Below are positions 3,136 through 19,253 of a DNA stretch of 19,643 bases, one piece after another. The position numbers and the translations under genes are program-made. This stretch comes from Oligoflexus sp. (lineage in GTDB: Bacteria; Bdellovibrionota_B; Oligoflexia; Oligoflexales; Oligoflexaceae), in NCBI GenBank assembly GCA_041736305.1, contig JBGSTX010000176.1, forward strand, positions 1 to 19,643. Reading direction: 5' to 3'. Under the pieces are notes generated by a model. It was not told the origin of the DNA, did no database searches, and saw only the letters and a program-made list of their open reading frames with translations. The stretch's first letter is position 1; every line of letters starts with the position of its first letter.

Positions 3136-4359
3136 ATGGGAACTACTAATACTGCTGCTACGCTTACCTCATATGTAAAAGAAGTCTATCCTTCAGGTAT
3201 CGGTCAGGTGATTCCTCGTAAGACGATGTCACTTGATACGATGAAATATAAAAACGATCTCGAAATCGGGCAAAAAGCCAAAATCCCCATTCAAGTTACA
3301 GATGAGCACGGGTTTTCATACAAAGACGGCCCTGGGACGATTGCATTAGCAGCGGCCGTAGCCCATGAAGGCGTTCACCTTGAGGTAGGCCCTTATCAGC
3401 TTGCACTTAGAATACGGATTTCGTATGACCTTGCAGCTCAGGCTTCAAGCAGCAAGAAAGCCTTTGCTGTATGGAATGAAAAACGCTTCATTCCTGCTAT
3501 CGAATCTGCTCAAAAACGGCTCAATGTTCTTGCTACATACGGCCGAGATTCTCTCGCTGAAGTCGAATCCGTCAGCACAAACGATATAGTCATCAAAGCT
3601 GGATCTTGGGCGCCTTGGATTTGGCTCGGAGCTAAGGGAGCTCCCATCGACATCTTTTCAGCCAAAACAGCAGGCACACAGAGAAACACTGGGGCCCTGA
3701 CGATTGCCGGAATCAATTCGAGCACTCGAACTATCACTGTGTCGGGGACTCACAGCGGCGTCGCTCCCGGAGATTTCCTCTTTTACTTCCAGGCTCGGGG
3801 CCAAGAACAGTTTGGAATCTTTGGCGCTGCAAAGCAAAGCCTCGTAGGCAGTATCTATAACCTTAATCACTCTACTTATGAAGCTTTGCAGGCGAACTAC
3901 TACCTTGTAACGGGCCGACTTACTATCGGCCAGCTGTTGGAAGCTGCTGCTTACAGCATGGATAAGGGCTGCGATGAAAAGCTTGCTGTCCAGATTCCGA
4001 GTACCTGTTTTGCGAATATGGTGAATGATCAATCGGCGCTTAGAAGTCATGGCGCAGAGATGAAACTCAGAAACGGCGCTAAGTCTCTGGAATTTTCTCT
4101 GGGCGATGTCGAGCTTGAGATCATGCCAAGCGGTGTCGTAAAGCGCGGGGAATTCATCATGTATCCCGAGCGCTATACGCACAGGATCGGCTCGACAGAC
4201 TGGACGAATACCCTTCCCGGCACAGACTCTGAGGAGCTCGTGCTGCATGTTCCCGATGCTACTGAGTATGAAATGCGATTCTATACGGCTCAAACTGTCG
4301 TCCCTGAGAAAATGTCTTGGGTTACCTACGGAAGCCGCGCTGATGGCGGAATCCTGTAA
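3136..4359 (+). CDS. Major capsid protein (HK97 fold inferred) with a beta-rich insertion domain
   Basis: 407 aa, RBS GGGAG at 3125-3129. N-terminal 'LTSYVKEVYP' is typical of capsid N-arms. It follows the scaffold gene and is followed by a terminator-like hairpin. Confidence 0.85.
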   Translation: MGTTNTAATLTSYVKEVYPSGIGQVIPRKTMSLDTMKYKNDLEIGQKAKIPIQVTDEHGFSYKDGPGTIALAAAVAHEGVHLEVGPYQLALRIRISYDLAAQASSSKKAFAVWNEKRFIPAIESAQKRLNVLATYGRDSLAEVESVSTNDIVIKAGSWAPWIWLGAKGAPIDIFSAKTAGTQRNTGALTIAGINSSTRTITVSGTHSGVAPGDFLFYFQARGQEQFGIFGAAKQSLVGSIYNLNHSTYEALQANYYLVTGRLTIGQLLEAAAYSMDKGCDEKLAVQIPSTCFANMVNDQSALRSHGAEMKLRNGAKSLEFSLGDVELEIMPSGVVKRGEFIMYPERYTHRIGSTDWTNTLPGTDSEELVLHVPDATEYEMRFYTAQTVVPEKMSWVTYGSRADGGIL

Positions 4360-5536: not shown

Positions 5537-7528
5537 ATGGGCGTAGCAAAGACCTGGGCAAATGTCGGCTATACCGTCCCCGAGGCAGGTGATCCCAGGG
5601 GAACCTGGGGCCGCACGACATCACTCTTTCTTCAGGCTTTGGCTGACAAAGCGATGTCAACCTATGGAGGAAACCAGGCTCTCACTGGGGCCGATCTTGA
5701 TCTCGGCGGATCGTTTGGAGTTAAGGCCCAGTATCTAAAGTCTCGCTCAAGCAATATTGCTCAGAGTCAGATTGTTAGGCTTGCGAATAACGAAGGATTT
5801 GCATGGCGAAACGCTGGGAACAGCGCAGACCTTGCTTTCAAGGTCAATGCATCGGACGCCTTGGAATTTGATGGCAAGGTGCTTAGCTCCAGCACTGGAG
5901 ATCTCAATGGGATTAGCTCTAATGGTATCGTCGCGAGGACGTCAGCAAACAATTATGCTCCGAGGACGCTGACGGCTGGTTCTAGCAAGCTAAGTATTAG
6001 CAATGGTAGTGGAGCCTCTGGCAATCCCACTATTGATGTCGTTGAAGGAAACCTTACGCTTGATAATATCGGCGGGACGCTGAGCGGAAGTAAGATTAGT
6101 CCTGCATTCGGTGCTCAGAACATCAGCACTACGGGGACTTTGGCCAGCGGAGTACCTACTCTAGGTATCTCAGGAGTAAACACGGCTCACACTCATAACA
6201 CTCAAAGGATGGTGGTAAGGTCAGCTGCGACTTCAGATTTCACATACATTGATCTTCGAAGTTCAACCGATCTGAACGGGTTTATCGGCGTCAACGGTAC
6301 CAGTGGTACGAAGCTTATAACAGGCAGTGCAGATAAAGCGCTTGCCCTCGGCGGAGTGGGAGGCATCTCTCTTTCCGGGAACAATGGCACAACTGAGCAC
6401 GTAACTATCAGCACAGTAGGCGCGGTGACGCTTGGTCCAACTAACACAGACACTGCTTCAGGCCCAAGCCACATACGGAACGGCTACACATCGAGTGGTG
6501 CAACCGGCACAGGCGACGCTCAGAAGCGCTTTATGTGGAATGTAAACGGTTACAGCTCTGGCTATTCAGGCTTCCCAGCAAGAACTGGTGTAGGCTCTTT
6601 AGGCGGCGCTATGCTTGAAATGTTCGCAAGAACATCAAATAGTAGCAACGCATTTACATTCAGTACTAGCCAGACTGGCGATGGCGCAACGACTACCATG
6701 ACGCCAGTCTTAACAATGACCCAAGCAGGTGCCTTAACGCTCGGTCCTCCCGCTACCAATACCACGCATTTTGTTAACGGTAATATGCAGTATAAAGGCT
6801 CAAATACAACAAACTCCGTTACTACCGAATACCGAAACTCAGATGCCTCAAGATTTTCGTATGTCGGTCTTAATAACAGCGCGGGCACTGCCTTAATCAC
6901 TGGTACTGATCCAAGTGCGCTTTGTATTGCTGGCAGCAATGGTATTGCGTTTAGCGGTAACGCTAGTGCTTTACACGGCAGCATTTCCCCAACAGGCGCG
7001 CCGACATTTGGGTCTACTACTACGGGTGTTGCAGCGACATTTAACGCTTCAAATATCAATCTTAACGCTATTGCAAGCGCCACTACCATTAACTTTATAA
7101 TGTCTCTTGCAGGCGCACAAAAGTGGCGAATATTTAATGATGTAACGATAAGCGATAGGCTCTACATATATGATGCAGACCAATCGGCTGGCGTGTATTT
7201 AGCTCAAAACGCTACCGCCTGGGCTTCGGCTTCTGATGTACGGGTAAAGAAAAATATCACTCCCATTTCTAAGGGTCTAGCTGATCTTAATAAAATCAAT
7301 GTTGTTGAATTCCATTATCTAACCGACGAAGACCAGAGGATGAAGCGGCTTGGCTTTATTGCTCAAGAGCTTAATGAAATTCTGCCAGAAGCGGTTGATG
7401 TATCTGACGTGGGCATGTGGGGTGTAACTGCTGCCGATCTAATACCAGTACTTGTTAAAGCTATTCAAGAACAACAAGCCCTCATTGAGTCCCTAAAGAC
7501 AAGAATAGAAGCACTCGAAGTAGTCTGA
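5537..7528 (+). CDS. Tail fibre / receptor-binding protein with C-terminal S74 intramolecular chaperone (auto-cleaving) domain
   Basis: 663 aa, Gly/Ser/Thr/Asn-rich. C-terminal 'SDVRVKKNI...[15 protein letters not shown]...[27 protein letters not shown]' (7232-7528) is the canonical S74 pattern with terminal coiled coil. RBS GGGAG at 5525-5529. Confidence 0.92.
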
Positions 7529-8070: not shown

Positions 8071-8925
8071 ATGTTTAACGGAGATGAGCTCCCGGAGGAG
8101 CTTAGAAAAAAGCTTTCTTTGCCCAATGGGCGCTTCGAGCCCGACACGATTCGAGGCTTTTGCACGAATGCTCTGATGTATGATCTCATGCCTATACTGA
8201 TTCGGGCGCGGCGTAGTTATTATGTCAAAGTTAGCGATATCTCGTTTGTTGCTGGTAAAGAACGATATCGACTCCCCTCAAGAGCATACGCCGGAGGCTT
8301 TCAGAGTCTTCAGAGAATTATCGATCAGCAGGTATCTAAGCTTATTCAGATCGAGTGTGGGCGTGTGGACTCGATCACAAGCGGATTACCGACATCCTAC
8401 TACCTCGAGGGCGGGGACATCCTTTTTTATCCCAAGCCTCAGGATGCGCTGGGCTTCGCACGGCTCAGGTATTGGCTCCAGCCCTCAAAGCTTGTATCTG
8501 TGGCGGAGTGTGCGCTTATTGAGTCAGTCGCAGGAGCTACGATAACGACGAGTGCAATTCCCGCAGCTTGGACGACTGCAAATCGCTTCGATCTTGTGCG
8601 CGGGACATCGGACTACGAGCCATACTCGCGGGATCTGACGGCTATCAACCTGACTGGGACGACGATCGAATTCAATCAAGATGTCGATACTACTTGGGAA
8701 GTCGGCGACTATGTGACGCTTCGAGCTCAAAGCCCCTACCCTTATCTCTATTCAGCATTCTTTGGGGCCCTCATGCAGTTTGCAGCAAGCTATGTGCACG
8801 AAGCGCTCGGCGATCTAGCGCAGAAACAAGCGTCCGACATGAAAGCTGCATCGCTAGTCCAAGAGACGCTCGATATCATGCTGATGCGGACGCAAGAACC
8901 GATTCCGATCGAATCTCCCCTGTGA
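8071..8925 (+). CDS. Head-tail adaptor (tail tubular protein A / gatekeeper-like)
   Basis: 284 aa with an N-terminal helical segment, 'ISFVAGKERYRLPS', 'YYLEGGDILFYPKP...LRYW' and C-terminal helices, as in podovirus adaptors. Directly precedes the nozzle-sized gene. Confidence 0.7.
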   Translation: MFNGDELPEELRKKLSLPNGRFEPDTIRGFCTNALMYDLMPILIRARRSYYVKVSDISFVAGKERYRLPSRAYAGGFQSLQRIIDQQVSKLIQIECGRVDSITSGLPTSYYLEGGDILFYPKPQDALGFARLRYWLQPSKLVSVAECALIESVAGATITTSAIPAAWTTANRFDLVRGTSDYEPYSRDLTAINLTGTTIEFNQDVDTTWEVGDYVTLRAQSPYPYLYSAFFGALMQFAASYVHEALGDLAQKQASDMKAASLVQETLDIMLMRTQEPIPIESPL

Positions 8926-8938
8926 GAGGTAGAAGCCT

Positions 8939-11413
8939 ATGCCAGCGCAGACTATAGAGCTATCGATAAGGGGCCTACACACATATAACTCAGAGCTATC
9001 TGGCGTTCCGAAGGGGGCACTCAAACGAGGCCGGAATATCAGTATCAATCGACTGAATCTGGCGGAGCCCAGAAGAGGCTTCAATTTCCTCACGCATAAT
9101 CTTCCGAACAATTCGGATCGAGCCCAGCGCCTTATCGACTTTAAAGACTCCCTCTGGGCGCACACGGGAACAGAGCTTTTCTACTCGGACGGCTCGAGCT
9201 TTGTGTCTCGAGGCACGATCTCAGCGCCTTCTGGGCAGAAGCTTCGGCACGCTATCGGAAACCAGAATCTCTATCTTTCGACATCGAACGGGATCTATAA
9301 GACGGACGCAGTAAGTAGTTCCGTTACTCTAGCGGGCGTTCCCAAAGCTATTCATTTAACAGGCGCACTTACAGGCGCGTCAGGTTATCTTACTGACGCC
9401 GGGACTGTGGCTTATCGCTATCTCTTCGGACGATATGACCTAAACGGCAACCTCATCCTGGGCGGTGCATCCCAAAGAATCACGGTCTCAAATAATGTTG
9501 GCGGTGGTGCTACGCGAAATGTCCAGCTACGGCTCTATATCCCATCGGGCATTCTTGCTGGCGATTTCCTTCAGCTCTATCGAACGATCATCTTCGCGAC
9601 GGGCGTTCCCGACGAAGAGTATCAGCTCTCATATGAGCTTACTTTGACGTCCGGAGATATTAGCGCTGGCTACGTTGACATTACCGACATCGTCCAAGAT
9701 GATCTGCTCGGAGCATTTCTTTATGTCTCTACAAGCCAGGGAGGCATCGCAGAAAACAATGAGAATATGCCTTTTGGCAAATCGATTGAGATCTATAAAG
9801 AACATCTTTTTCTTGGGAACCTTCGTTACCGCCATAAGATCCTTGTCACGCTTCTTGCTACCGGGACGAATGGCCTTCAAAATAACGACACGATTACTTT
9901 TACTCGGGGCGTGACGACTGTCACCTACACGGCTAAGAGCTCCCCTACTCTCTCAACAGATTTTCAGCTCACAACAGGGGGGACTGCTTCGACAGATATC
10001 CGGGATACAGCGCTAGCTTTTGTCGCGAAGGTGAATCAGAACGCTTCAGATTTTCTCTATGCTTACTATATTTCGGGCTCGGATGATCTTCCCGGCAAGA
10101 TCCTGCTCGAGGCTAGGGATCTTTCATCGAGCTCTTTTACTGTCACTTCAACGCGTGCCAGTGCCTTTCAGCCGAGCCTTACCTCTCCCGCTGCGACACT
10201 CAATACAAGCTCCTCTAGCTCCTACAAAAATGGATTGGCATTCTCGAAGTATGGTCAATCGGAGCACTTCGCTCTGAAGAATCTTATTTTTATAGGCAGG
10301 GCCGACAAAGAACTATTGAACATCAAGGCCTTGCGGGACGCGCTTTTGGTATTCAAAGAAGACGGAACCTTCGTCCTCCGCGGCGATAATGAATTCAATT
10401 TTACTGTGCAGGAAGTCGATACAAATGCCGTGCTTCTTGGAGTCGATTGTTTGTGTGTCGGAAACAATACTGCCTACTGCTACCTGGAGACTGGCTTTGC
10501 AGCAGTGACCGACGCCGGTACAGAGACGATTTCGATACCGATCAAAGACGAGCTCCTCGCGATCCAGGGCCCTGCACTGGCGGAGATTGAAGCCTACTCG
10601 CACGCAGTGGCATACGATGCAGAGGGGAAAATTCTTTTCTGGGTGCCAGAGGCCGAAGGAGATACGACAGCGACGAAAGTCTACGTCTATGACTTTTATA
10701 ACGAGTCATTTGTCGATTGGCCTATCCGCTCTGATGCAGCTGTCATCTTTCAAAAGCGGCTCTACGCAGGGGTTTCAGATATCAATAAGATCCGAGTCGA
10801 ACGCAAGGCCTTGGACTTTTCAGACTATGTTGACTATGGCTCCTCTCTGACAATTTCTGATGTATCAAGTTATACGCTTACTCTTAACGACACGTCCGAC
10901 ATACTTCCTGGCGATGTCATCGCTCAGGATGATCTATACGGCTACGTTGAATCTGTGAATCCCGATCTTGATACGGTCACGCTCGATGTCGCTGAAGCTT
11001 GGGACACGGGGCTTCCGGTCGATCATCTAAAGGGTATTGATGTCGATGTCGCGTTTAATCCCGAGTTTGCGGGAAATCCTGGAGGCTATAAGAATTGGCT
11101 TGAGTGCCTTTTGATGTTCAAGCGTGGATTTATAAAAAACGCCACAATATCTTTTTATACTGACCTTTACTCTGGGCTCACTGAAGTACCGGTCGAACAA
11201 CCTGCAGGGACAGGAGCCTTCGGCGAATTTGACTTCGGCGATGCGACATTCGGAGGGGATCCAGCTCAAGCTCCAATCAGGCTTCTTGTGCCTCGAGACG
11301 CATCAAAATCAACACTGCTCTTTGTTAGCTTTAGTCAGCGCGTGGCTTTCTCCGACTTCCAGCTCAATGGCCTGAGCCTGATCTATGAGCCGATTTCTAC
11401 GAGGTTCATATGA
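8939..11413 (+). CDS. Tail nozzle (tail tubular protein B / P22 gp10-like), beta-propeller-rich
   Basis: 824 aa, beta-rich. N-terminal 'IRGLHTY..GAL..GRNISI..EPRRGF' and internal 'LAFSKYGQSEHF..IKALRDALLVFKEDGTFVLRG' are typical of nozzle proteins. Synteny agrees. Confidence 0.78.
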   Translation: MPAQTIELSIRGLHTYNSELSGVPKGALKRGRNISINRLNLAEPRRGFNFLTHNLPNNSDRAQRLIDFKDSLWAHTGTELFYSDGSSFVSRGTISAPSGQKLRHAIGNQNLYLSTSNGIYKTDAVSSSVTLAGVPKAIHLTGALTGASGYLTDAGTVAYRYLFGRYDLNGNLILGGASQRITVSNNVGGGATRNVQLRLYIPSGILAGDFLQLYRTIIFATGVPDEEYQLSYELTLTSGDISAGYVDITDIVQDDLLGAFLYVSTSQGGIAENNENMPFGKSIEIYKEHLFLGNLRYRHKILVTLLATGTNGLQNNDTITFTRGVTTVTYTAKSSPTLSTDFQLTTGGTASTDIRDTALAFVAKVNQNASDFLYAYYISGSDDLPGKILLEARDLSSSSFTVTSTRASAFQPSLTSPAATLNTSSSSSYKNGLAFSKYGQSEHFALKNLIFIGRADKELLNIKALRDALLVFKEDGTFVLRGDNEFNFTVQEVDTNAVLLGVDCLCVGNNTAYCYLETGFAAVTDAGTETISIPIKDELLAIQGPALAEIEAYSHAVAYDAEGKILFWVPEAEGDTTATKVYVYDFYNESFVDWPIRSDAAVIFQKRLYAGVSDINKIRVERKALDFSDYVDYGSSLTISDVSSYTLTLNDTSDILPGDVIAQDDLYGYVESVNPDLDTVTLDVAEAWDTGLPVDHLKGIDVDVAFNPEFAGNPGGYKNWLECLLMFKRGFIKNATISFYTDLYSGLTEVPVEQPAGTGAFGEFDFGDATFGGDPAQAPIRLLVPRDASKSTLLFVSFSQRVAFSDFQLNGLSLIYEPISTRFI

Positions 11414-13023: not shown

Positions 13024-14304
13024 ATGGGTTTTTGGGACGATCTAAAAAACGCGAATAAAAAATTTATTACTGCATCGCATGGGGGCGATGAGGATACGGC
13101 AAGGATATTCATCGATCCTCTTAATCTAGGAGTGTCGGATGCACTACTTGGAAAGAGAGGCGGCCCTCCTAGCTATGAGGATCATGACGCAAAACAAGAT
13201 GAGATTCTTGCAAAGCTAGAAGCCGGAATGCCTCTTGAATATGAGGAGGAGGCCTGGCTTGAAGACTACGCTCCTGATCTCCTGGGACAGGCTGAGGCTC
13301 TCGGGCCTTCCGCGGTGTCTAATATCAAAGAGGACGAAGATCTTAAGCGGATCAGAATGGAGGCCCTTTCAGCTCTCGAGGAGCAAGCGGAAACTGGTTT
13401 TTCTCCAGCCGACTTTGCTCAGCAAGTGCGAGAGCAAAAGGCTCTCAGGCAGCAAACGCGTGGCCAGCTGGGTGCAATCGAGCAGAATATGGCTTCTAGG
13501 GGGATCGGAGGATCTGGACTCGAGCTAATGGCGCAATTGGGTTCGGCCCAAGCCTCTGATTCAAGAGCCGCCGACATGGCCCTGGAACGAGAAGCACGGG
13601 GCTATGAAAACCGGATGCGGTCGAGGCAAGCGGCCGGGGGAATGGCTGGCGAGATGTCTCGGGATGACTATCAGCGGGAGCGTGACGCTGCAATGGCGAG
13701 AGACTCCATTGAGCGCTATAACGTGGAAAATAGGGCTAGACGTGAGGAATATAATAATCGCCTTGGAAATGAAGCGAAAGCGGGTAACTTGCAGGGCAGA
13801 CAAACCGTCGCTAGCAACAATAGTAGGGGCAGAAACAATTTCGGGCAGCAGCGATACGGGAACCAGGCCGCGGCAGCTCAAATAAGATATAACCAAAATT
13901 CTGAGAGGCAAAACCGAAGTATTCAGCAGTATGCTGACCAAGAAGACGCCTACAATCGAAAGCGCGAGGGCGTAGTGAATGGGGCTGGTAGCGTATTTGG
14001 TGCGATATTATCTGACGAGAGAGTAAAGACGGACATAGAAGAAATACCCGAACAAGAAATCGAAGCATTTCTTCAGAGCATCGTCCCTTCGAGCTTTAGT
14101 TATAAGGACGGCCGTAGCGAGGGGCAGCATGTCGGCGTTATGGCTCAAGACATAGAGCGCACGCCGATAGGAAAGACGATCGTCGATAAACGTGGGCCTG
14201 AAAGTATCCGATCAATGGATAAAGATGATCTGATAGGTGCACTGCTCGGCTCGGTTTCCTACCTTTACCGTAAGCAAAAAGAAAGGGATAGCTATGGATC
14301 CTAG
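13024..14304 (+). CDS. Internal virion / DNA-ejection protein 2 with C-terminal S74-like domain
   Basis: Ala/Gln/Arg-rich helical body with 'MASRGIGGSGLELMAQ' and hydrophobic 'GVVNGAGSVFGAIL', followed by 'SDERVKTDI...FSYK...GVMAQDIE' (14011-14304). Confidence 0.75.
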   Translation: MGFWDDLKNANKKFITASHGGDEDTARIFIDPLNLGVSDALLGKRGGPPSYEDHDAKQDEILAKLEAGMPLEYEEEAWLEDYAPDLLGQAEALGPSAVSNIKEDEDLKRIRMEALSALEEQAETGFSPADFAQQVREQKALRQQTRGQLGAIEQNMASRGIGGSGLELMAQLGSAQASDSRAADMALEREARGYENRMRSRQAAGGMAGEMSRDDYQRERDAAMARDSIERYNVENRARREEYNNRLGNEAKAGNLQGRQTVASNNSRGRNNFGQQRYGNQAAAAQIRYNQNSERQNRSIQQYADQEDAYNRKREGVVNGAGSVFGAILSDERVKTDIEEIPEQEIEAFLQSIVPSSFSYKDGRSEGQHVGVMAQDIERTPIGKTIVDKRGPESIRSMDKDDLIGALLGSVSYLYRKQKERDSYGS

Positions 14305-15424
14305 ACTCGAAGACGAGCTCATGAAGAAATACTATCCTGAAATGTATCGGGCTCGAACCGAAGGCCAAACAGAGATAGATGACGCAAGGAGCATGCAAAA
14401 ATATACGAATATGGCTCCAGGCATAGGCCAAGTGATCGGTTCAATAACAGCGCCGAAGTATAATTCGCTCCCCTTTGTTGGCGGCTGGGGCGATTCCATG
14501 GCTAAGAGTGCTCCTGCTCAAATCAGGCCTACGCAAATCGACTTTTCGGCAATTAAAAATGCTGGCGATGAGAGATTAAAAAGGGCCGAATCTGATCGTG
14601 ACAAGGGTATGGAAGAGGGATTGGCGGTCGATCAGCTGGGGCTGAAGGCGCAGGATATGCACGATGAGACTGATCCAGAGAATCCCAGGGCGATCATGAT
14701 GAGAGACTCGGTGAAAGCGGCGCTTCCCGAGCTTGCGGCTAAGATTCCTAATTACGAAAAAATGACTTTAAAGGATTTTAAAACGAGTTTCCCCGTTGCT
14801 TACAAGTCTTACATGGATTACGCGGAGCTTAGTTCGAAGAATACTACTGAGAGAAGGAAAGAAGCAAAGGAAGAGAAAAAATCTGGACACGATCGCTATA
14901 AAAGATCGGTCGATATCAGAAAAGAGCTTTCCAACAATCCCTCTTTTAAGAATGCGCGGGAAACGGACGGCCGTCTTTCGCAAGTCGACGAGCTCATGAA
15001 AAATCCGGGCGGTGTCTCGGACGAAGCAATCCTCGTTATGTATCAGAAGGCCCTAGATCCTGGATCAGTCGTTCGTGAGGGCGAATTTGCACGAACGGCC
15101 GAAGGCCAAGCTCTCCTGTCTCGTGTCGATACAATCATGCAGAGCTACATGAAGGGCAATCGGATGACTCCGGAGCTCAGAAATCAGGTAGTCGGCACGA
15201 TGCGGGCCTTGAGAGACGGTAACAGAGTGCAGTTACAAAAAATTCTTGTGCCGTACGAGAGAGAGATACGGGATTACCAGCTAGATCGAGGGATTATACT
15301 TGGCGAAGATGAAGAGGGCGGCGGAGGTAATGCAGGGCCCTCCCCTGCTGGCGCCGGAAGTAGGCCTTCAGGTAGCCCGCCGCCGAAAAAAGGCGGAAAG
15401 TTTGACGGAAGGACTCTGCCATGA
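14294..15424 (+). CDS. Internal virion / ejection protein 3
   Basis: ATG 14294 follows AAAGGGA and overlaps the upstream gene end by 11 nt. Helical, containing 'YQKALDPGSVVREGEFA', a motif I recognise from podovirus internal virion proteins. Confidence 0.7.
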   Translation: MDPRLEDELMKKYYPEMYRARTEGQTEIDDARSMQKYTNMAPGIGQVIGSITAPKYNSLPFVGGWGDSMAKSAPAQIRPTQIDFSAIKNAGDERLKRAESDRDKGMEEGLAVDQLGLKAQDMHDETDPENPRAIMMRDSVKAALPELAAKIPNYEKMTLKDFKTSFPVAYKSYMDYAELSSKNTTERRKEAKEEKKSGHDRYKRSVDIRKELSNNPSFKNARETDGRLSQVDELMKNPGGVSDEAILVMYQKALDPGSVVREGEFARTAEGQALLSRVDTIMQSYMKGNRMTPELRNQVVGTMRALRDGNRVQLQKILVPYEREIRDYQLDRGIILGEDEEGGGGNAGPSPAGAGSRPSGSPPPKKGGKFDGRTLP

Positions 15425-18400
15425 GAGTCACAAAAAACTTTCAAGATTTCTATGACATCGATGAAAGTGATGAGAGTGTCGAAGGAGCCTTTGCCAAGGG
15501 CTATAAGCCTGTCATCACTGTGACGAAAGATGGGGCGGAAACGTACGATCTTGATGCATCCGATACCGGCTCAGTGCGGGCTGCCTTCGACAAAGGTTAC
15601 TTCGAAGTCGATGCTCTCAAAAATCTTGATGAGTCTAGACAAGAGGCCCGTAGGCCTTCGAAAGCAAGAGTAGCGCTGCGCGGCGGCTTGCAGGGATCCT
15701 TCTTTGGTTTCCCTGATGAGCTTGCAGGCGGAACAGAAGCAGTCATGTCTCTAGCAGGGGATGAGCCTTTTAAGGAGGCCTACAAGCGGGGCCGAGACGA
15801 GTGGCGGGCCGAGGATAAGAGAGCGGAGGCAGAGAATCCTTTGCTCTACAAGGGGGCTGAATTTGTAGGCAGTGCAATAGTGCCTCTTGGGGCCGGAGCC
15901 GCGGCGAAAACTCTCGGTGGCGCTTTTTTGAAAGGAGCGGGAGCCGGAGCTCTCCAGGGGACGCTAGCCGGAGTCGGGACGAGTGAAGATGAAACGGCGT
16001 CAGGGCTTGCTAAGGATGCAGCGCTAGGCGGCGCACTTGGCGGGGTTCTCGGCGGGCCATTGGGTGTTACGGGAAGTGTCATAGGACGGGCTTTAACAAA
16101 GGGCGGAAGGGAAAGCCTCGAGGCCGAAGCCAGAGCTCTCCAAAGGGGGTTTTCGAAGCCTGTGGACGGGGCCGGGTATCTGGAGCCTTTGAAGCGAGTA
16201 CGAGAAGCCTTTAATGAAGCTGGGGCTACGGAAGAATTTCTCGGAGAGTTTAAAAATCTCATAGGTAAGTCAAAAAATAACTTAATAAGTCGAATGGTCG
16301 AAGAGGGAGGATCGAAGGATCAGATCGAGGGCGCTCGATCGATGCTTCGCAAGATGTCGGATGACGACTTTGTGAAGCGGATGCTCCTCGAGGACGGGCC
16401 GAACGAAGTTAAAGACTGGGTGACAAAAAACGCGTCCGCTACTGGAGGACGTTTCCAGCCTGAGCACTATGCTTCTGTTCTGAACGACTCTGCTTCCCAG
16501 CGATCTGAAGCTCGTCGATTCAGCGCTAGAGAGCGCGGGGCAGAGCTTTTAGATCCAGCAAAGAAGGCCGAAGACAGCTTTATGCCCGCCAACATGTCTA
16601 AAGTCAGGGAGCTTACCGAGAAGGGTGCTCCTGAGTTTGGGGGGGATTCCGAGGCCGTAGATCGTGCACTCTGGGCAATTCAAGGCGCCTATGAAGATAG
16701 CCAAAGCCTGAGTAGTATACCGTCCGGAGTAGGGAAGCGAATTCGTGACGTGCTCAATATCATAGAAAAGGGCAAGGGCCCGGCCCATATGAAGCTGAAG
16801 GAAGGCGACTATACGGGAACTATTCGCTCGAGTGATCGCTTTTTCCGGTTCCAGAAGGCAAGGGAACACCTTGACGAGGGGATCGACTGGGAAAAGATCA
16901 CCAAGGGCGTTCGGCCAATGACCAGCGGCGAAAAGGTGCTAGCGGGCCTTCGCGATGAGTTTGACACTCTTCTAAAAGAGGTACCTGGAAAGCGTGAAGC
17001 TGATGAAGTCTGGCAGGCAGCTGCGAGGATCGAAAAGAGCGTCTTCGATAAGAGCTCCTACGGGGGAGGCATTGATAAATATAAGCTGGCTCAGCTTCTT
17101 TCAAACAGCGATCAGTCGCAGCGTTTTTTCGACGATCTAAACAGCCTAAAGGCGTGGTCGGAGGATCCCCAGTTCGATTCGGCATCGCGGGAGTATGCAA
17201 AAAACTTTGTCGATGAATTTACAAAAGCTGTCGATGTAGCGCAAAGAAAGCGAAAGATTGACGCTTTTGATTACAAGCAGGGCCCGAGCTCGGCGGCGAT
17301 CGAGAGGCTTGGTAATCAGGTAAAAGACAGGGATACGATTCAGACATTCATCGAGGCACCGGCTACAGCTGTCCAAGGCATGGATAATTTTCTCGATAAA
17401 TATGTACCAATGGCTGCTGGAAAGTCCTTCAAAGAGCTCGGAGATAAGGAAAAGGGTGCGGTAGTCGATCTTTGGACGTGGTTCAATAAGAACGCGAAAG
17501 AAGGCAGAGGCATCACCGATGAATCGGTCATAAACAACTATAGAAAGTTTTTGGAAACACGCGGGGGCGGAGGCCCTGACGGCGGGCCTGGCGGAGGTGG
17601 AGGCTCAGGGGGCGGTGGAGGATCAAATTTTTCTGGCGCGGGAATGCCTCCCGCGATTGAGAAGGCGTTTCGAGGGTATCTGCAATCGAAAGGTGAGGGC
17701 TTTGTTGCAGAGCAAATGTCTCGAGCGATGGGAATGGAAAACGGGCTTGATGTGTTCGAGCCCTACAAAGAGGAATTCCGGGAGTATCTGAAAAAGAACC
17801 ACGGCTTTTCGGAGAATGAAGCAAAGATTGCAGCCGGGCTCTTGCCTAGTAATCCTCTTGAGATTCCTGGATTAAGAGGGATCCCCTCAAAGCGAGATAT
17901 GGGGGATGTCTATGACTTCAAGAAGGCAAAAAAGGCCCTTGAGGCTGGTGAGAAACCTAAAGCTTTAGGCAAGGTGGGAATCAGTAAGCTTGATGGCACT
18001 ACTGAGGACCTTGGGCTTCTGGACAAGATCAGAGCCAGGCTGGATGACGGTCCAGAGCACAAGGCAACACACAAATGGATCGATCAGGTCGAAAAGTATG
18101 GAGCAGATGAACCGTATGTCGGACGGGACTATTCAAGCGTAGCTGCTTTGCGTAGGATCAAAAAAAGTGATCCTATGCAGCCTATTCCTGTGCCTGTCGA
18201 GAAGATCGGCGATCTAAAAGGTGTGTTAGGCAAAGGCGTTTTGAAGGGCGAAAGTGATCCCTTTGGTTGGTTGGATACTAAATATGGGGTTTCAAAGGAT
18301 CTGCTCGCGCGCGAGAAAAATAACCCTCTTAAAATATTTACAAGGTCTGATCTAATCGCTCACGATGATTACATCGCCAATTTAAACCCTGAAAAGCATG

Positions 18401-18717
18401 AGATCAATATAGTCATAAGCACTGCGAATAACGGGATCAGCAGATTGCTCGAGCCAGGTGCTCCAAGCATCAAGAGGAGGTTGACAGCTGCAAACAAGCT
18501 TGCAGAGCAAGGCTACAAGGTAAATATTTTGTATCATAATTACACAAATAAGGGCCTTGATGATAAATTTTATAATGTGGTTCAGCCTGACCAGTTGACG
18601 ACTTTTAAAGAGCTAAAACGGATGGGTTTAGGAAAAGGGATCGGTTTTGAAGCTATTTCCCAATCTATTGACGATGAAGCTGTTAAAAGAATAAATAGGA
18701 TCCTAGGATCTGAGTGA
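15421..18717 (+). CDS. Large internal virion / ejection protein with Gly-rich membrane-inserting segments and a C-terminal radical-SAM-like cargo domain
   Basis: 1098 aa, ATGA-coupled to the previous gene. 'RGGLQGSFFGFPDELAG' and GxxxG-rich hydrophobic stretches lie near the N-terminus. Gly linker at 17563-17625. C-terminal SPL-like motifs from 18247. Confidence 0.8.
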   Translation: MRVTKNFQDFYDIDESDESVEGAFAKGYKPVITVTKDGAETYDLDASDTGSVRAAFDKGYFEVDALKNLDESRQEARRPSKARVALRGGLQGSFFGFPDELAGGTEAVMSLAGDEPFKEAYKRGRDEWRAEDKRAEAENPLLYKGAEFVGSAIVPLGAGAAAKTLGGAFLKGAGAGALQGTLAGVGTSEDETASGLAKDAALGGALGGVLGGPLGVTGSVIGRALTKGGRESLEAEARALQRGFSKPVDGAGYLEPLKRVREAFNEAGATEEFLGEFKNLIGKSKNNLISRMVEEGGSKDQIEGARSMLRKMSDDDFVKRMLLEDGPNEVKDWVTKNASATGGRFQPEHYASVLNDSASQRSEARRFSARERGAELLDPAKKAEDSFMPANMSKVRELTEKGAPEFGGDSEAVDRALWAIQGAYEDSQSLSSIPSGVGKRIRDVLNIIEKGKGPAHMKLKEGDYTGTIRSSDRFFRFQKAREHLDEGIDWEKITKGVRPMTSGEKVLAGLRDEFDTLLKEVPGKREADEVWQAAARIEKSVFDKSSYGGGIDKYKLAQLLSNSDQSQRFFDDLNSLKAWSEDPQFDSASREYAKNFVDEFTKAVDVAQRKRKIDAFDYKQGPSSAAIERLGNQVKDRDTIQTFIEAPATAVQGMDNFLDKYVPMAAGKSFKELGDKEKGAVVDLWTWFNKNAKEGRGITDESVINNYRKFLETRGGGGPDGGPGGGGGSGGGGGSNFSGAGMPPAIEKAFRGYLQSKGEGFVAEQMSRAMGMENGLDVFEPYKEEFREYLKKNHGFSENEAKIAAGLLPSNPLEIPGLRGIPSKRDMGDVYDFKKAKKALEAGEKPKALGKVGISKLDGTTEDLGLLDKIRARLDDGPEHKATHKWIDQVEKYGADEPYVGRDYSSVAALRRIKKSDPMQPIPVPVEKIGDLKGVLGKGVLKGESDPFGWLDTKYGVSKDLLAREKNNPLKIFTRSDLIAHDDYIANLNPEKHEINIVISTANNGISRLLEPGAPSIKRRLTAANKLAEQGYKVNILYHNYTNKGLDDKFYNVVQPDQLTTFKELKRMGLGKGIGFEAISQSIDDEAVKRINRILGSE

Positions 18718-18969
18718 AATCAAAAAGGTGACAAATTCAATCAAGATCAGAGCGCCTATCAAAGGCACGAAATAATACTCTACAGTCGATCGAAATTATT
18801 TTCTTTGATCCGATAGCTCAGCGTGTATTTCGTGCAGTATAGCGTTTTGCTCCACCATTAGTGCAAGAAAAGCAGTGTCAAGTTTTGAGTGTTCGTTTTT
18901 TTTCTTAATGACGTCTTGTATATCGAAGCGAGTCTGATCGCGTTTATAACATGAGGGATTTTTTATCAA
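18703..18969 (-). pseudogene. Antisense small gene (helical region plus C-terminal transmembrane helix) interrupted by an in-frame TAA
   Basis: Manual translation: MIKNPSCYKRDQTRFDIQDVIKKKNEHSKLDTAFLALMVEQNAILHEIHAELSDQRK*FRSTVEYYFVPLIGALILIEFVTFLISLRS*. Internal TAA at 18798-18796. No clear RBS. Confidence 0.45.
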
Positions 18970-19022
18970 TTATGTCATATTGCGAATATTTATCTGCGCG
19001 TAAGTCCCCGGAATGCCTTGCC

Positions 19023-19200
19023 TCCCAGCTCTTTGGTGATTTCATTCATATCCGAAAGGCTCTGCGTGCGTAGCCTGAAAGGGCTCAGAGGTTATGGTAA
19101 GGAAGCTGATCGAGCGTAAATAAGCCTCAGAGCTGAGGCAGCTCTTACCCTACTTTCGATGCTTTCCCAAAGCAAGAACGCAATAGAGCCCAGCCTGGGA
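19023..19200 (+). ncRNA. Candidate structured RNA or 5' leader of unknown family
   Basis: Several nested stems and two GAAA tetraloops found by eye (see findings). No ORF of 60 aa or more in this interval. Confidence 0.35.
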
Positions 19201-19253
19201 AGCTCTCAAATGCTCTTTTCCAAGCTAAAATGAAAGGAAGAGGTATACGAGCA

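Follow-up and report, generated by a model that had tools for sequence, protein, structure and literature searches.

A cysteine-free, radical SAM-type domain joined by a glycine-rich linker to a presumed phage ejection protein in an Oligoflexus contig

The DNA analysed here, referred to as the window, is the whole of a 19.6 kb contig (JBGSTX010000176.1, 19,643 nucleotides) from a metagenome-assembled genome (MAG) of Oligoflexus sp. (GCA_041736305.1; 5.0 Mb in 392 contigs, 92.7% complete). The window reads as a podovirus-type structural module, and its final large gene, at positions 15421–18717, encodes a protein of 1098 amino acids (aa) devoid of cysteine. The C-terminal part of this protein, from about residue 896 to residue 1098, is homologous to radical S-adenosylmethionine (SAM) enzymes of the spore photoproduct lyase (SPL), PA0069 and Rv2578c types, the last two of which we take to be COG1533. 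It is the iron-sulfur cluster that defines radical SAM enzymes, and what is new at this locus is a pseudoenzyme offshoot of the COG1533-type enzymes used as phage cargo. The parts of the gene are given below, with isoelectric points (pI) and guanine-plus-cytosine (GC) content where relevant.

15421–18717, forward strand: whole gene, 1098-aa Cys-free protein, final large gene of the structural module.
15421–17562, forward strand: body, aa 1–714, acidic (pI 5.4) and helical, containing a hydrophobic stretch rich in Gly and Ala; presumed to be ejected or otherwise internal to the virion.
17563–17625, forward strand: Gly-rich linker GGGGPDGGPGGGGGSGGGGGS, aa 715–735.
17650–17838, forward strand: small helical module between linker and domain, aa ~744–806, as modelled; conserved in the homologue P0003.
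17899–17925, forward strand: motif MGDVYDFKK, aa 827–835, aligned with the N-terminal 'NVI.F' of stand-alone members and Cys-bearing parents (alignments A2 and A7).
18058–18714, forward strand: modelled domain, aa 880–1098, a truncated radical SAM-type barrel, basic (pI 9.2), GC 42.5%.
18106–18150, forward strand: vestigial [4Fe-4S] loop DEPYVGRDYSSVAAL, aa 896–910, aligned with DTYGRGCxHNCxYCYA of Cys-bearing relatives.
18247–18531, forward strand: conserved core, strands 2 to 5, aa 943–1037 (GESDPFGW...KVNIL), holding the invariant columns of alignments A1, A4 and A7; its motifs are GESDPFGW.D.KY, TRSDLIAHDDY (18340–18372) and EPGAPSIKRR (18451–18480).

Comparison of the domain with family profiles gave significant matches to two radical SAM families of NCBIfam, PA0069 (NF033668; domain E 1.5e-8, profile positions 121–221 of 348) and Rv2578c (NF038135; domain E 4.6e-8, positions 131–225 of 317), with scores of 34.1 and 32.5 bits that do not reach the whole-protein equivalog cut-offs of 360 and 430, respectively. 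The cluster-loop portion of both profiles was left unmatched. The match to the Pfam model for SPL (PF20903) was sub-threshold (E 0.0078, 15.6 bits against a cut-off of 27), and the window protein showed no match to Pfam Radical_SAM (PF04055) at E ≤ 1; among the 19 members of alignment A1, Radical_SAM was matched by 12 at E ≤ 0.1 (best E 3e-9) and SPL by three. The AlphaFold2 model of residues 880–1098, built on alignment A1, reached a predicted local distance difference test value (pLDDT) of 89.3 and a predicted template modelling score (pTM) of 0.87. When this model was compared with the PDB by Foldseek, six SPL entries came out on top (E 2e-5 to 8e-5, template modelling score TM(query) 0.43–0.47, 20–22% identity over 150–154 columns), followed by SkfB, RimO, BlsE, SuiB, PFL-AE, DesII, NifB, viperin, RlmN, and MoaA. 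All the matches with E ≤ 1e-3 were radical SAM enzymes, the model having the partial (beta/alpha) core of a triosephosphate isomerase (TIM) barrel, and the confident Foldseek matches in BFVD were likewise all radical SAM proteins. When the PDB was searched with a sequence profile, SPL alone was returned, over the loop EPG(T/A)(S/P)S...R(L/R) (E 0.17), and the ESM Atlas gave no usable match for the domain. Compositional chance was considered as the cause of the radical SAM likeness and rejected by the NCBIfam E values and the Foldseek results. These data bear out the initial annotation, made from the letters of the window, which had read an SPL/Rv2578c-like barrel from a linker (17563–17625) and a motif block (18247–18531) whose translations agree with ours. 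Its motif block lies within the domain as claimed, and the start of the domain had to be moved: the homologous unit begins upstream of that block, at about residue 896 (position 18106), and a further conserved motif is found at residues 827–835.

The absence of cysteine, and with it of CxxxCxxC, was verified from the open reading frame (ORF) 15421–18717, which is open across its 1098 codons. At the rate of the other 13 ORFs of the window (0.43%), about 4.7 cysteines would be expected in 1098 aa and none was observed (Poisson P ~0.009). A frameshift or assembly artefact was rejected as the origin of this state, because the frame is intact and 18 of the 22 long homologues are Cys-free too. The window segment DEPYVGRDYSSVA aligns with 'DTYGRGCxHNCxYCYA' of Cys-bearing bacterial relatives of ~450–490 aa, the stretch opposite CxHxCxYC being GRDYSSVA, and the CxxxCxxC of two family members, P0113 and P0155, sits exactly at window EPYVGRDYSSVAAL. 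In the old cluster loop, the window protein has S-S where the others have H-N, and the first cluster cysteine is replaced by Asp in many members. The initial annotation had described the cluster motif as absent, which holds for its cysteines and not for the loop, which by alignment persists as a recognisable vestige. Since the domain has no cysteine at all, the holding of a [4Fe-4S] cluster, the cleavage of SAM and radical chemistry are excluded on sequence grounds, in agreement with the catalytically dead state first proposed.

The Cys-bearing relatives (~450–490 aa) came from same-phylum bacterial genomes and from metagenome contigs, and the pattern C(I/V/L/M/F)H(N/D)C.YC was present in the same-phylum bacterial proteins at all seven loci inspected. 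These proteins are colinear with the phage domain through 'NVI.F', 'RFG..P.GG', 'DTYGRGC.H.C.YCYA', 'YWN.P.P.P' (PMQPIPVPV in the window), 'SD.F.W.D.KY', 'TRSDLIAHD(D/E)Y', and 'EPGAPS..RRL' in A7; this alignment was used for the cluster-motif comparison, because in A4, made with MAFFT, the motifs of viral radical SAM proteins were wrongly aligned. Core identity to the window domain was 37–45% for three of them (loci L038, L043, and L044), and their matches to the PA0069, Rv2578c and 'mobile pair B' models were all sub-threshold. Because of this colinearity, almost all the residues conserved in the Cys-less family can be called an inheritance, and hardly any a novelty. Three things present in these parents have been lost from the phage form: the cysteines, about 25 residues around helix 1, and everything after strand 5/6, that is, about 200 C-terminal residues with further cysteines in the parents. 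The phage form retains the motifs of the parental N-terminus and the loops that follow strands 2, 3, and 4.

A gene of ~130 aa encoding an ASCH-like protein adjoins the Cys-bearing radical SAM gene in 14 of the 15 loci with visible flanks, L062 being the exception, and this cassette was found in bacterial genomes and metagenome contigs (L060–L068, L055–L057, L038, L044, and L045). The ASCH-like protein shows the invariant motifs G.K..ETR, ETPG, and PKWGW, and its profile matches TTHA0113 (PDB 2dp9; E 4e-4) and, more weakly, EOLA1/CXorf40, which we take to be ASCH-domain proteins. No equivalog of NCBIfam covers the cassette. Nearby genes include MmeI/Eco57I-type methylases (Eco57I matches at L038 and L044), as well as Z1 and DUF2779 at L044. 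The family profile was matched in 14 of 131 same-phylum genomes (G000 among them), with four matches, one of them stop-interrupted, in a single genome of 2.2 Mb. Within the genus, four of 13 other genomes gave matches. Two of them carry phage-like copies without cysteine, and one of these two has parent-length frames in addition; in the third genome the matches are parent-length frames, and in the fourth a shorter frame. The MAG of the window holds only the window copy. The nearest presumably active relatives of the phage domain are the ~450–490-aa enzymes encoded beside the ~130-aa ASCH-like protein, a pair that we regard as a candidate nucleic-acid modification or defence system.

The truncated barrel can be compared with the SAM site of SPL, in which, according to excerpts of the structural report (PMC3467042), SAM is bound to the unique iron of the cluster through its amino and carboxylate groups, with further contacts from Ser142/Asp143, Lys174, Ser195, the Ala234 backbone, and Arg273. 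By motif order, and not by superposition, the S-D of GESDPF would correspond to Ser142/Asp143 and the R of TRSD to Lys174. It is this likeness that speaks for the idea, put forward in the initial annotation, of a SAM sponge or decoy, i.e., a dead barrel that still binds SAM and starves SAM-dependent defences, since in SPL these residues hold the methionine part of SAM; in the same sense, a polyvalent relative, P0056, bears a DUF3293/SAM-lyase-like N-terminus, its lyase match being sub-threshold. However, radical SAM enzymes have these two groups of SAM as ligands of the unique iron, whose cluster is absent here, and the column equivalent to Ser195 varies in alignment A1. In addition, many members end right after strand 5 and are without strand 6, which leaves the adenine pocket, formed by strands 5 and 6, incomplete. 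For these three reasons, canonical SAM binding by the domain appears unlikely, and the sponge is probably wrong, being one of the least credible of the explanations weighed here.

A different possibility is that the barrel has been re-tooled for non-radical, perhaps metal-dependent chemistry on host targets, as a hydrolase or nuclease. The dense set of invariant or near-invariant charged residues (the D of SDP, D.K, TRSD, HDD, the E of EPG, and RR) and the change of the first cluster cysteine to Asp in many members would fit such a role, and TatD_DNase was weakly matched by two relatives in the region around TRSD, at sub-threshold E values of 0.0014 and 0.0046. Nevertheless, nearly all these charged residues are inherited unchanged from the Cys-bearing parents, so that no new catalytic set is seen, the barrel is truncated, and the window protein has S-S in the old cluster loop. 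We consider this re-tooling unlikely.

The domain is not a single odd fusion, as might have been concluded from the window alone. A profile search over 1.84 billion representatives, clustered at 50% identity, found 1826 clusters at E ≤ 1e-3, 451 at E ≤ 1e-10, and 176 at E ≤ 1e-30, which sets the family at no fewer than 176 clusters. Cysteine state and architecture were recorded for 171 family proteins, the search results used being the best 150 of the 1826 clusters: the domain was Cys-free in 98 and the whole protein in 88, with CxxxCxxC in only two (P0113 and P0155), and the domain stood alone in 104, was C-terminal in 51, N-terminal in eight, and internal in eight. Fusion partners include L5 gp82 (P0007) and Peptidase_S74 (P0011). 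In P0005 (657 aa), an N-terminal cluster-less domain is followed by CarD RID and CarD_C (E 3.9e-7 and 2.5e-17), which suggests a possible connection with the transcription of the host for part of the family. The metagenomic protein P0056 (2933 aa) contains DUF3293, DUF5661, mCpol, the cluster-less domain at residues 405–662, and then about 2270 unannotated residues, with an S-AdoMet lyase match at its N-terminus of 25.6 bits against a cut-off of 28. No relative was detected among 50,697 GenBank phage records with three queries (the C-terminal 363 aa of the window protein, P0032, and P0040), nor did the window domain match any plasmid of PLSDB, and neither Pfam nor NCBIfam nor the PHROGs annotation includes a model specific to the family.

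Selection on the family bears on the suggestion that the domain is a functionless relic of a fused enzyme. The loss of all catalytic cysteines and the truncation of the barrel would agree with it, whereas the family is large and old, alignment A1 (19 sequences, ~35% pairwise identity) shows 19 invariant columns, and the window frame is intact across 1098 codons. Against the same-genus relative L051 (69% identity), the nonsynonymous rate dN was 0.23 with a saturated synonymous rate dS, a comparison that fits purifying selection and yields no dN/dS ratio. This reading is therefore disfavoured, and we give it hardly any credence.

A FastTree phylogeny of 179 core segments of 115 aa, rooted at the midpoint and with low support for its deep nodes, gathered 31 leaves in one clade (support 0.93) that included all the 25 labelled as Cys-bearing, with P0113 and P0155 near its base, and left about 148 Cys-less leaves outside. 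Six leaves labelled as lacking cysteine fell within the Cys-bearing clade; for the three whose labels were checked, L012, L017, and the truncated L045, this is an artefact of the 130-aa labelling window or of truncation, and the other three are P0046, P0132, and P0141.

Several other observations were made on these proteins and their neighbours. Viral contigs L007–L024 encode a viral radical SAM family of ~420–510 aa with 9–15 cysteines and a conserved, Cys-rich C-terminus (CSTFD.GN.P.N....CC.VGDWF), which has INTKSDLV and LEPGAPS..RR in common with the window domain. In two Cys-bearing viral radical SAM genes (L008:6777–8048 and L021:7629–8906), the C-terminal splicing region of an intein abuts the first cysteine of CPFxCxYC, so that this residue would be both the first ligand of the cluster and the +1 residue of the extein; an 'intein-containing Rv2578c' model exists in NCBIfam. 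On a 155-kb metagenome contig (L048:4181–8503, and also in L047), a 240-aa family member with six cysteines and no CxxxCxxC lies within an array of five paralogous genes of ~200 aa. Among 92 ORFs around 20 loci, three Cys-bearing (L038, L043, and L044) and 17 Cys-less, four matched Imm5_like of Pfam, for which this five-gene group, the largest paralogue group there, is the likely source; matches to ArdA, PARP, and peptidases in the same set were not assigned to a locus.

The way in which the domain is attached to the body was clarified by homologues of the latter. An orthologue of 706 aa, P0172, aligns to residues 29–715 (38% identity, E 2e-122) and terminates at '...FLGTPG', precisely where the Gly linker begins in the window protein. 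The domain-coding region (18058–18714) has a GC content of 0.425, and the same value at third codon positions (GC3), against 0.524 and 0.527 for the body and 0.49–0.52 for the other window genes, a composition foreign to the rest of the gene and in line with the AT-richer gene end that was first noticed. From the end of P0172 at the linker and this difference in composition, we conclude that the C-terminal domain is a modular add-on behind the Gly linker, as the first reading of the gene had supposed. The homologue P0003 (1317 aa) shares the later body (from about residue 355), has a comparable linker of Gly, Pro, and Ser in the same position, and shares the helical module and the domain as well. 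The predicted structure of residues 736–1098 (pLDDT 82.3) shows three parts, a helical bundle at residues ~744–806, flexible segments, and the barrel; the helices of the bundle lie at model residues 9–71 (block pLDDT 56 to 87), and the MGDVYDFKK segment was predicted as flexible (pLDDT 44–57). In the orthologue P0004 (1377 aa), the helical module ('VF.P.K..L..YL....G......A......LPS.P') occurs twice, near residues 340 and 985.

Concerning the function of the body, its place in the window is informative. Besides the large gene, the structural module contains the following features.

3136–4359: major head protein, matching phrog_14242.
5537–7528: tail fibre gene, 663 aa, matching 14 PHROG tail-fibre families (best E 2e-20).
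8071–8925: SU10-type adaptor, matching PF24175.
8939–11413: gene of 824 aa after the adaptor, followed by four genes, the last of which is 15421–18717.
18718–19229: intergenic gap of low GC (0.428) that closes the structural gene run.

The tail fibre gene is placed between the head genes and the adaptor gene, with a second fibre-like gene at 13024–14304, and the ORFs 13024–14304 and 14237–15424 overlap by 68 bases as called; the latter, called from a GTG at 14237, probably begins further downstream. Within the structural module, the large gene comes after those for adaptor and nozzle, the position of podovirus ejection proteins. In viral contigs L003 and L037, homologues of the window genes 13024–14304 and 14237–15424 are found upstream of the domain-bearing protein, in the order fibre-like gene, phrog_13634-like gene, and large protein with the C-terminal domain, and in L005, L006, L037, and L042 the domain-bearing protein is the last large gene of a co-directional run. 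In the body, residues 73–222, which cover the Gly/Ala-rich hydrophobic stretch, match phrog_5880, and in the ESM Atlas its nearest neighbours were viral hypothetical proteins, the nearest Pfam-bearing cluster being the P22 gp16 'DNA transfer protein' at 0.93, a value to be taken as a lead only, as such scores are 'often chance'. Among the GenBank phages, no relative was found of the major head protein or, with a DNA query, of the gene 15421–18717, and a PDB sequence search gave nothing significant for the 824-aa neighbour. Gene order, composition, and the Atlas lead make it somewhat probable that the protein is an ejection protein delivered with the genome; the name used in the initial annotation is favoured by these three lines and is kept here as a presumption.

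A basic domain (pI 9.2) on an acidic body (pI 5.4) could also serve inside the virion alone, gripping the packaged genome or the portal, for instance, the DNA end for ejection. The C-terminal position of the domain on the last structural gene in the window, L003, L005, L006, L037, and L042 would suit this role. Nonetheless, 104 of the 171 proteins examined are small stand-alone proteins, other members occur in non-structural settings (the CarD fusion, the mCpol polyvalent protein, and the Imm5-like array), and P0172 represents an orthologous body working without the module. A purely virion-internal function seems, therefore, unlikely, on a par with the re-tooled enzyme.

The reading we favour, to which we would give about even chances, is that the ~200-aa C-terminus, descended in shortened and cluster-less form from a radical SAM enzyme of COG1533 type, acts as an injected substrate-binding pseudoenzyme, the substrate being likely nucleic acid. 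According to this proposal, the module, attached through a Gly linker to an ejection protein or other internal protein of the phage, would enter the cell with the DNA; the barrel, unable to hold a [4Fe-4S] cluster or to cleave SAM, would still bind the substrate of its parents, and this binding would serve protection or counter-defence at an early stage of infection. The domain retains the half of the parents' barrel that bears the subfamily-specific loops. That it binds nucleic acid, or the substrate or partner of the parents, is a tentative part of the proposal, to which we give rather less than even weight. The preference for nucleic acid comes from four sources: SPL repairs DNA (PMC3467042, in excerpt), and the SPL-like radical SAM protein gp53 of phage M6, matched to SPL by its authors, modifies DNA (PMC8989533, in excerpt), so that both SPL-like enzymes with a known function have DNA as their target; the neighbour of the parents is ASCH-like; ASCH/PUA domains bind nucleic acids, modified bases included (PMC7641849, in excerpt); and the domain is basic, the family having a median pI of 9.0 with 77% of members above 8.

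A number of points weigh against this proposal. Nucleic acid binding is something that we infer from relatives and charge, and in SPL the contacts with the lesion are made by a beta-hairpin and by the C-terminal Arg273, Lys309, and Tyr339 (PMC3467042, in excerpt), regions that lie beyond what the minimal family retains. The retained motifs could equally be SAM-side residues, useless after the loss of the cluster. The ejection role draws on gene order, composition, and an Atlas lead (0.93) of a kind that is 'often chance', and the body has no relatives in the PDB, by sequence search, or among the GenBank phages. The gene contexts of the stand-alone members are heterogeneous, and neither the window nor any of the Cys-less loci showed an ASCH-like partner. 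Modelling the window domain in a complex with the ASCH-like protein of a same-genus genome gave no answer (score 0.00, mark 0.32), which counts neither for nor against the proposal.

A more specific version would have phages injecting a dead mimic of the host radical SAM protein, which would block the radical SAM and ASCH-like cassette by occupying its substrate or its partner. Here the cassette would be an uncharacterised nucleic-acid-directed defence or modification system; it is found in up to four copies per genome, with Z1 and MmeI/Eco57I-type genes beside it, and also in the genus of the MAG. We hold this mimicry to be improbable as it stands; if true, it would be the first radical SAM-derived anti-defence pseudoenzyme.

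More generally, a large and conserved cluster-less offshoot on phage virion and polyvalent proteins would represent a new class of pseudoenzymes in the conflict between phages and hosts. The family has been invisible in cultured phages, as the GenBank phage queries came back empty, and any annotation it now receives is a weak 'radical SAM' match, a label from which Fe-S chemistry would be wrongly inferred. In addition, it points to active parents, a multi-copy pair of radical SAM and ASCH-like genes next to restriction-type genes. As initially claimed, the fusion had no description that we could find: a full-text literature search turned up no ejection or polyvalent protein of phages with a cluster-less domain of the radical SAM type, although such a domain could be listed under another name among the 40 'novel uncharacterized domains' of PMC5512222.

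Among known systems, SPL (PDB 4FHE and others; PF20903) is the best structural match (E 2e-5, TM(query) 0.45–0.47, 22% identity over 154 columns), with the same motif order and a common loop EPG(A/T)(P/S)S...R(R/L) after strand 4. In contrast to SPL, the window domain has no CxxxCxxC, scores 15.6 bits against the Pfam cut-off of 27, and ends soon after strand 5/6, without the regions of Arg273, Lys309, and Tyr339; also, the catalytic Cys140 of SPL (PF20903/TIGR04070) is absent, and the relay sites Tyr96/Tyr98 are in or beside the lost cluster motif. With the PA0069 and Rv2578c families there is significant homology over part of the profile, the domain remaining far under the equivalog cut-offs, whereas the Cys-bearing parents keep C..C and CxHxCxYC, ~25 more residues at helix 1, and ~200 C-terminal residues that the window domain has lost. 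The T7 protein gp16 is an ejection protein with a transglycosylase domain; no sequence relation to the window protein was found for the ejection proteins of N4 or T7, and the window cargo differs in being a pseudoenzyme. The virion RNA polymerase of N4 likewise shows a large internal virion protein serving as the vehicle of a functional domain (PMC13434306), and the N4 ejection-protein paper names radical SAM solely in connection with an HExxH motif. As for polyvalent proteins (Iyer et al. 2017, PMC5512222), relatives of the domain sit in large multi-domain proteins with mCpol, DUF3293, CarD, and L5 gp82, and the delivery of effectors together with the DNA, as proposed here, agrees with the abstract of that paper. 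Two or more disparate domains were found in P0056, P0005, and P0007, and the window protein consists of one body and one cargo module; the words 'radical', 'TIM barrel', and 'photoproduct' have no occurrence in the main text of that paper. Finally, gp53 of phage M6 is also a phage-encoded SPL-like barrel tied to DNA, but by its description (PMC8989533, in excerpt) it keeps the cluster motif CTVGCAFC and is an active cytoplasmic enzyme, which sets it apart from the cluster-less domain of the window protein.

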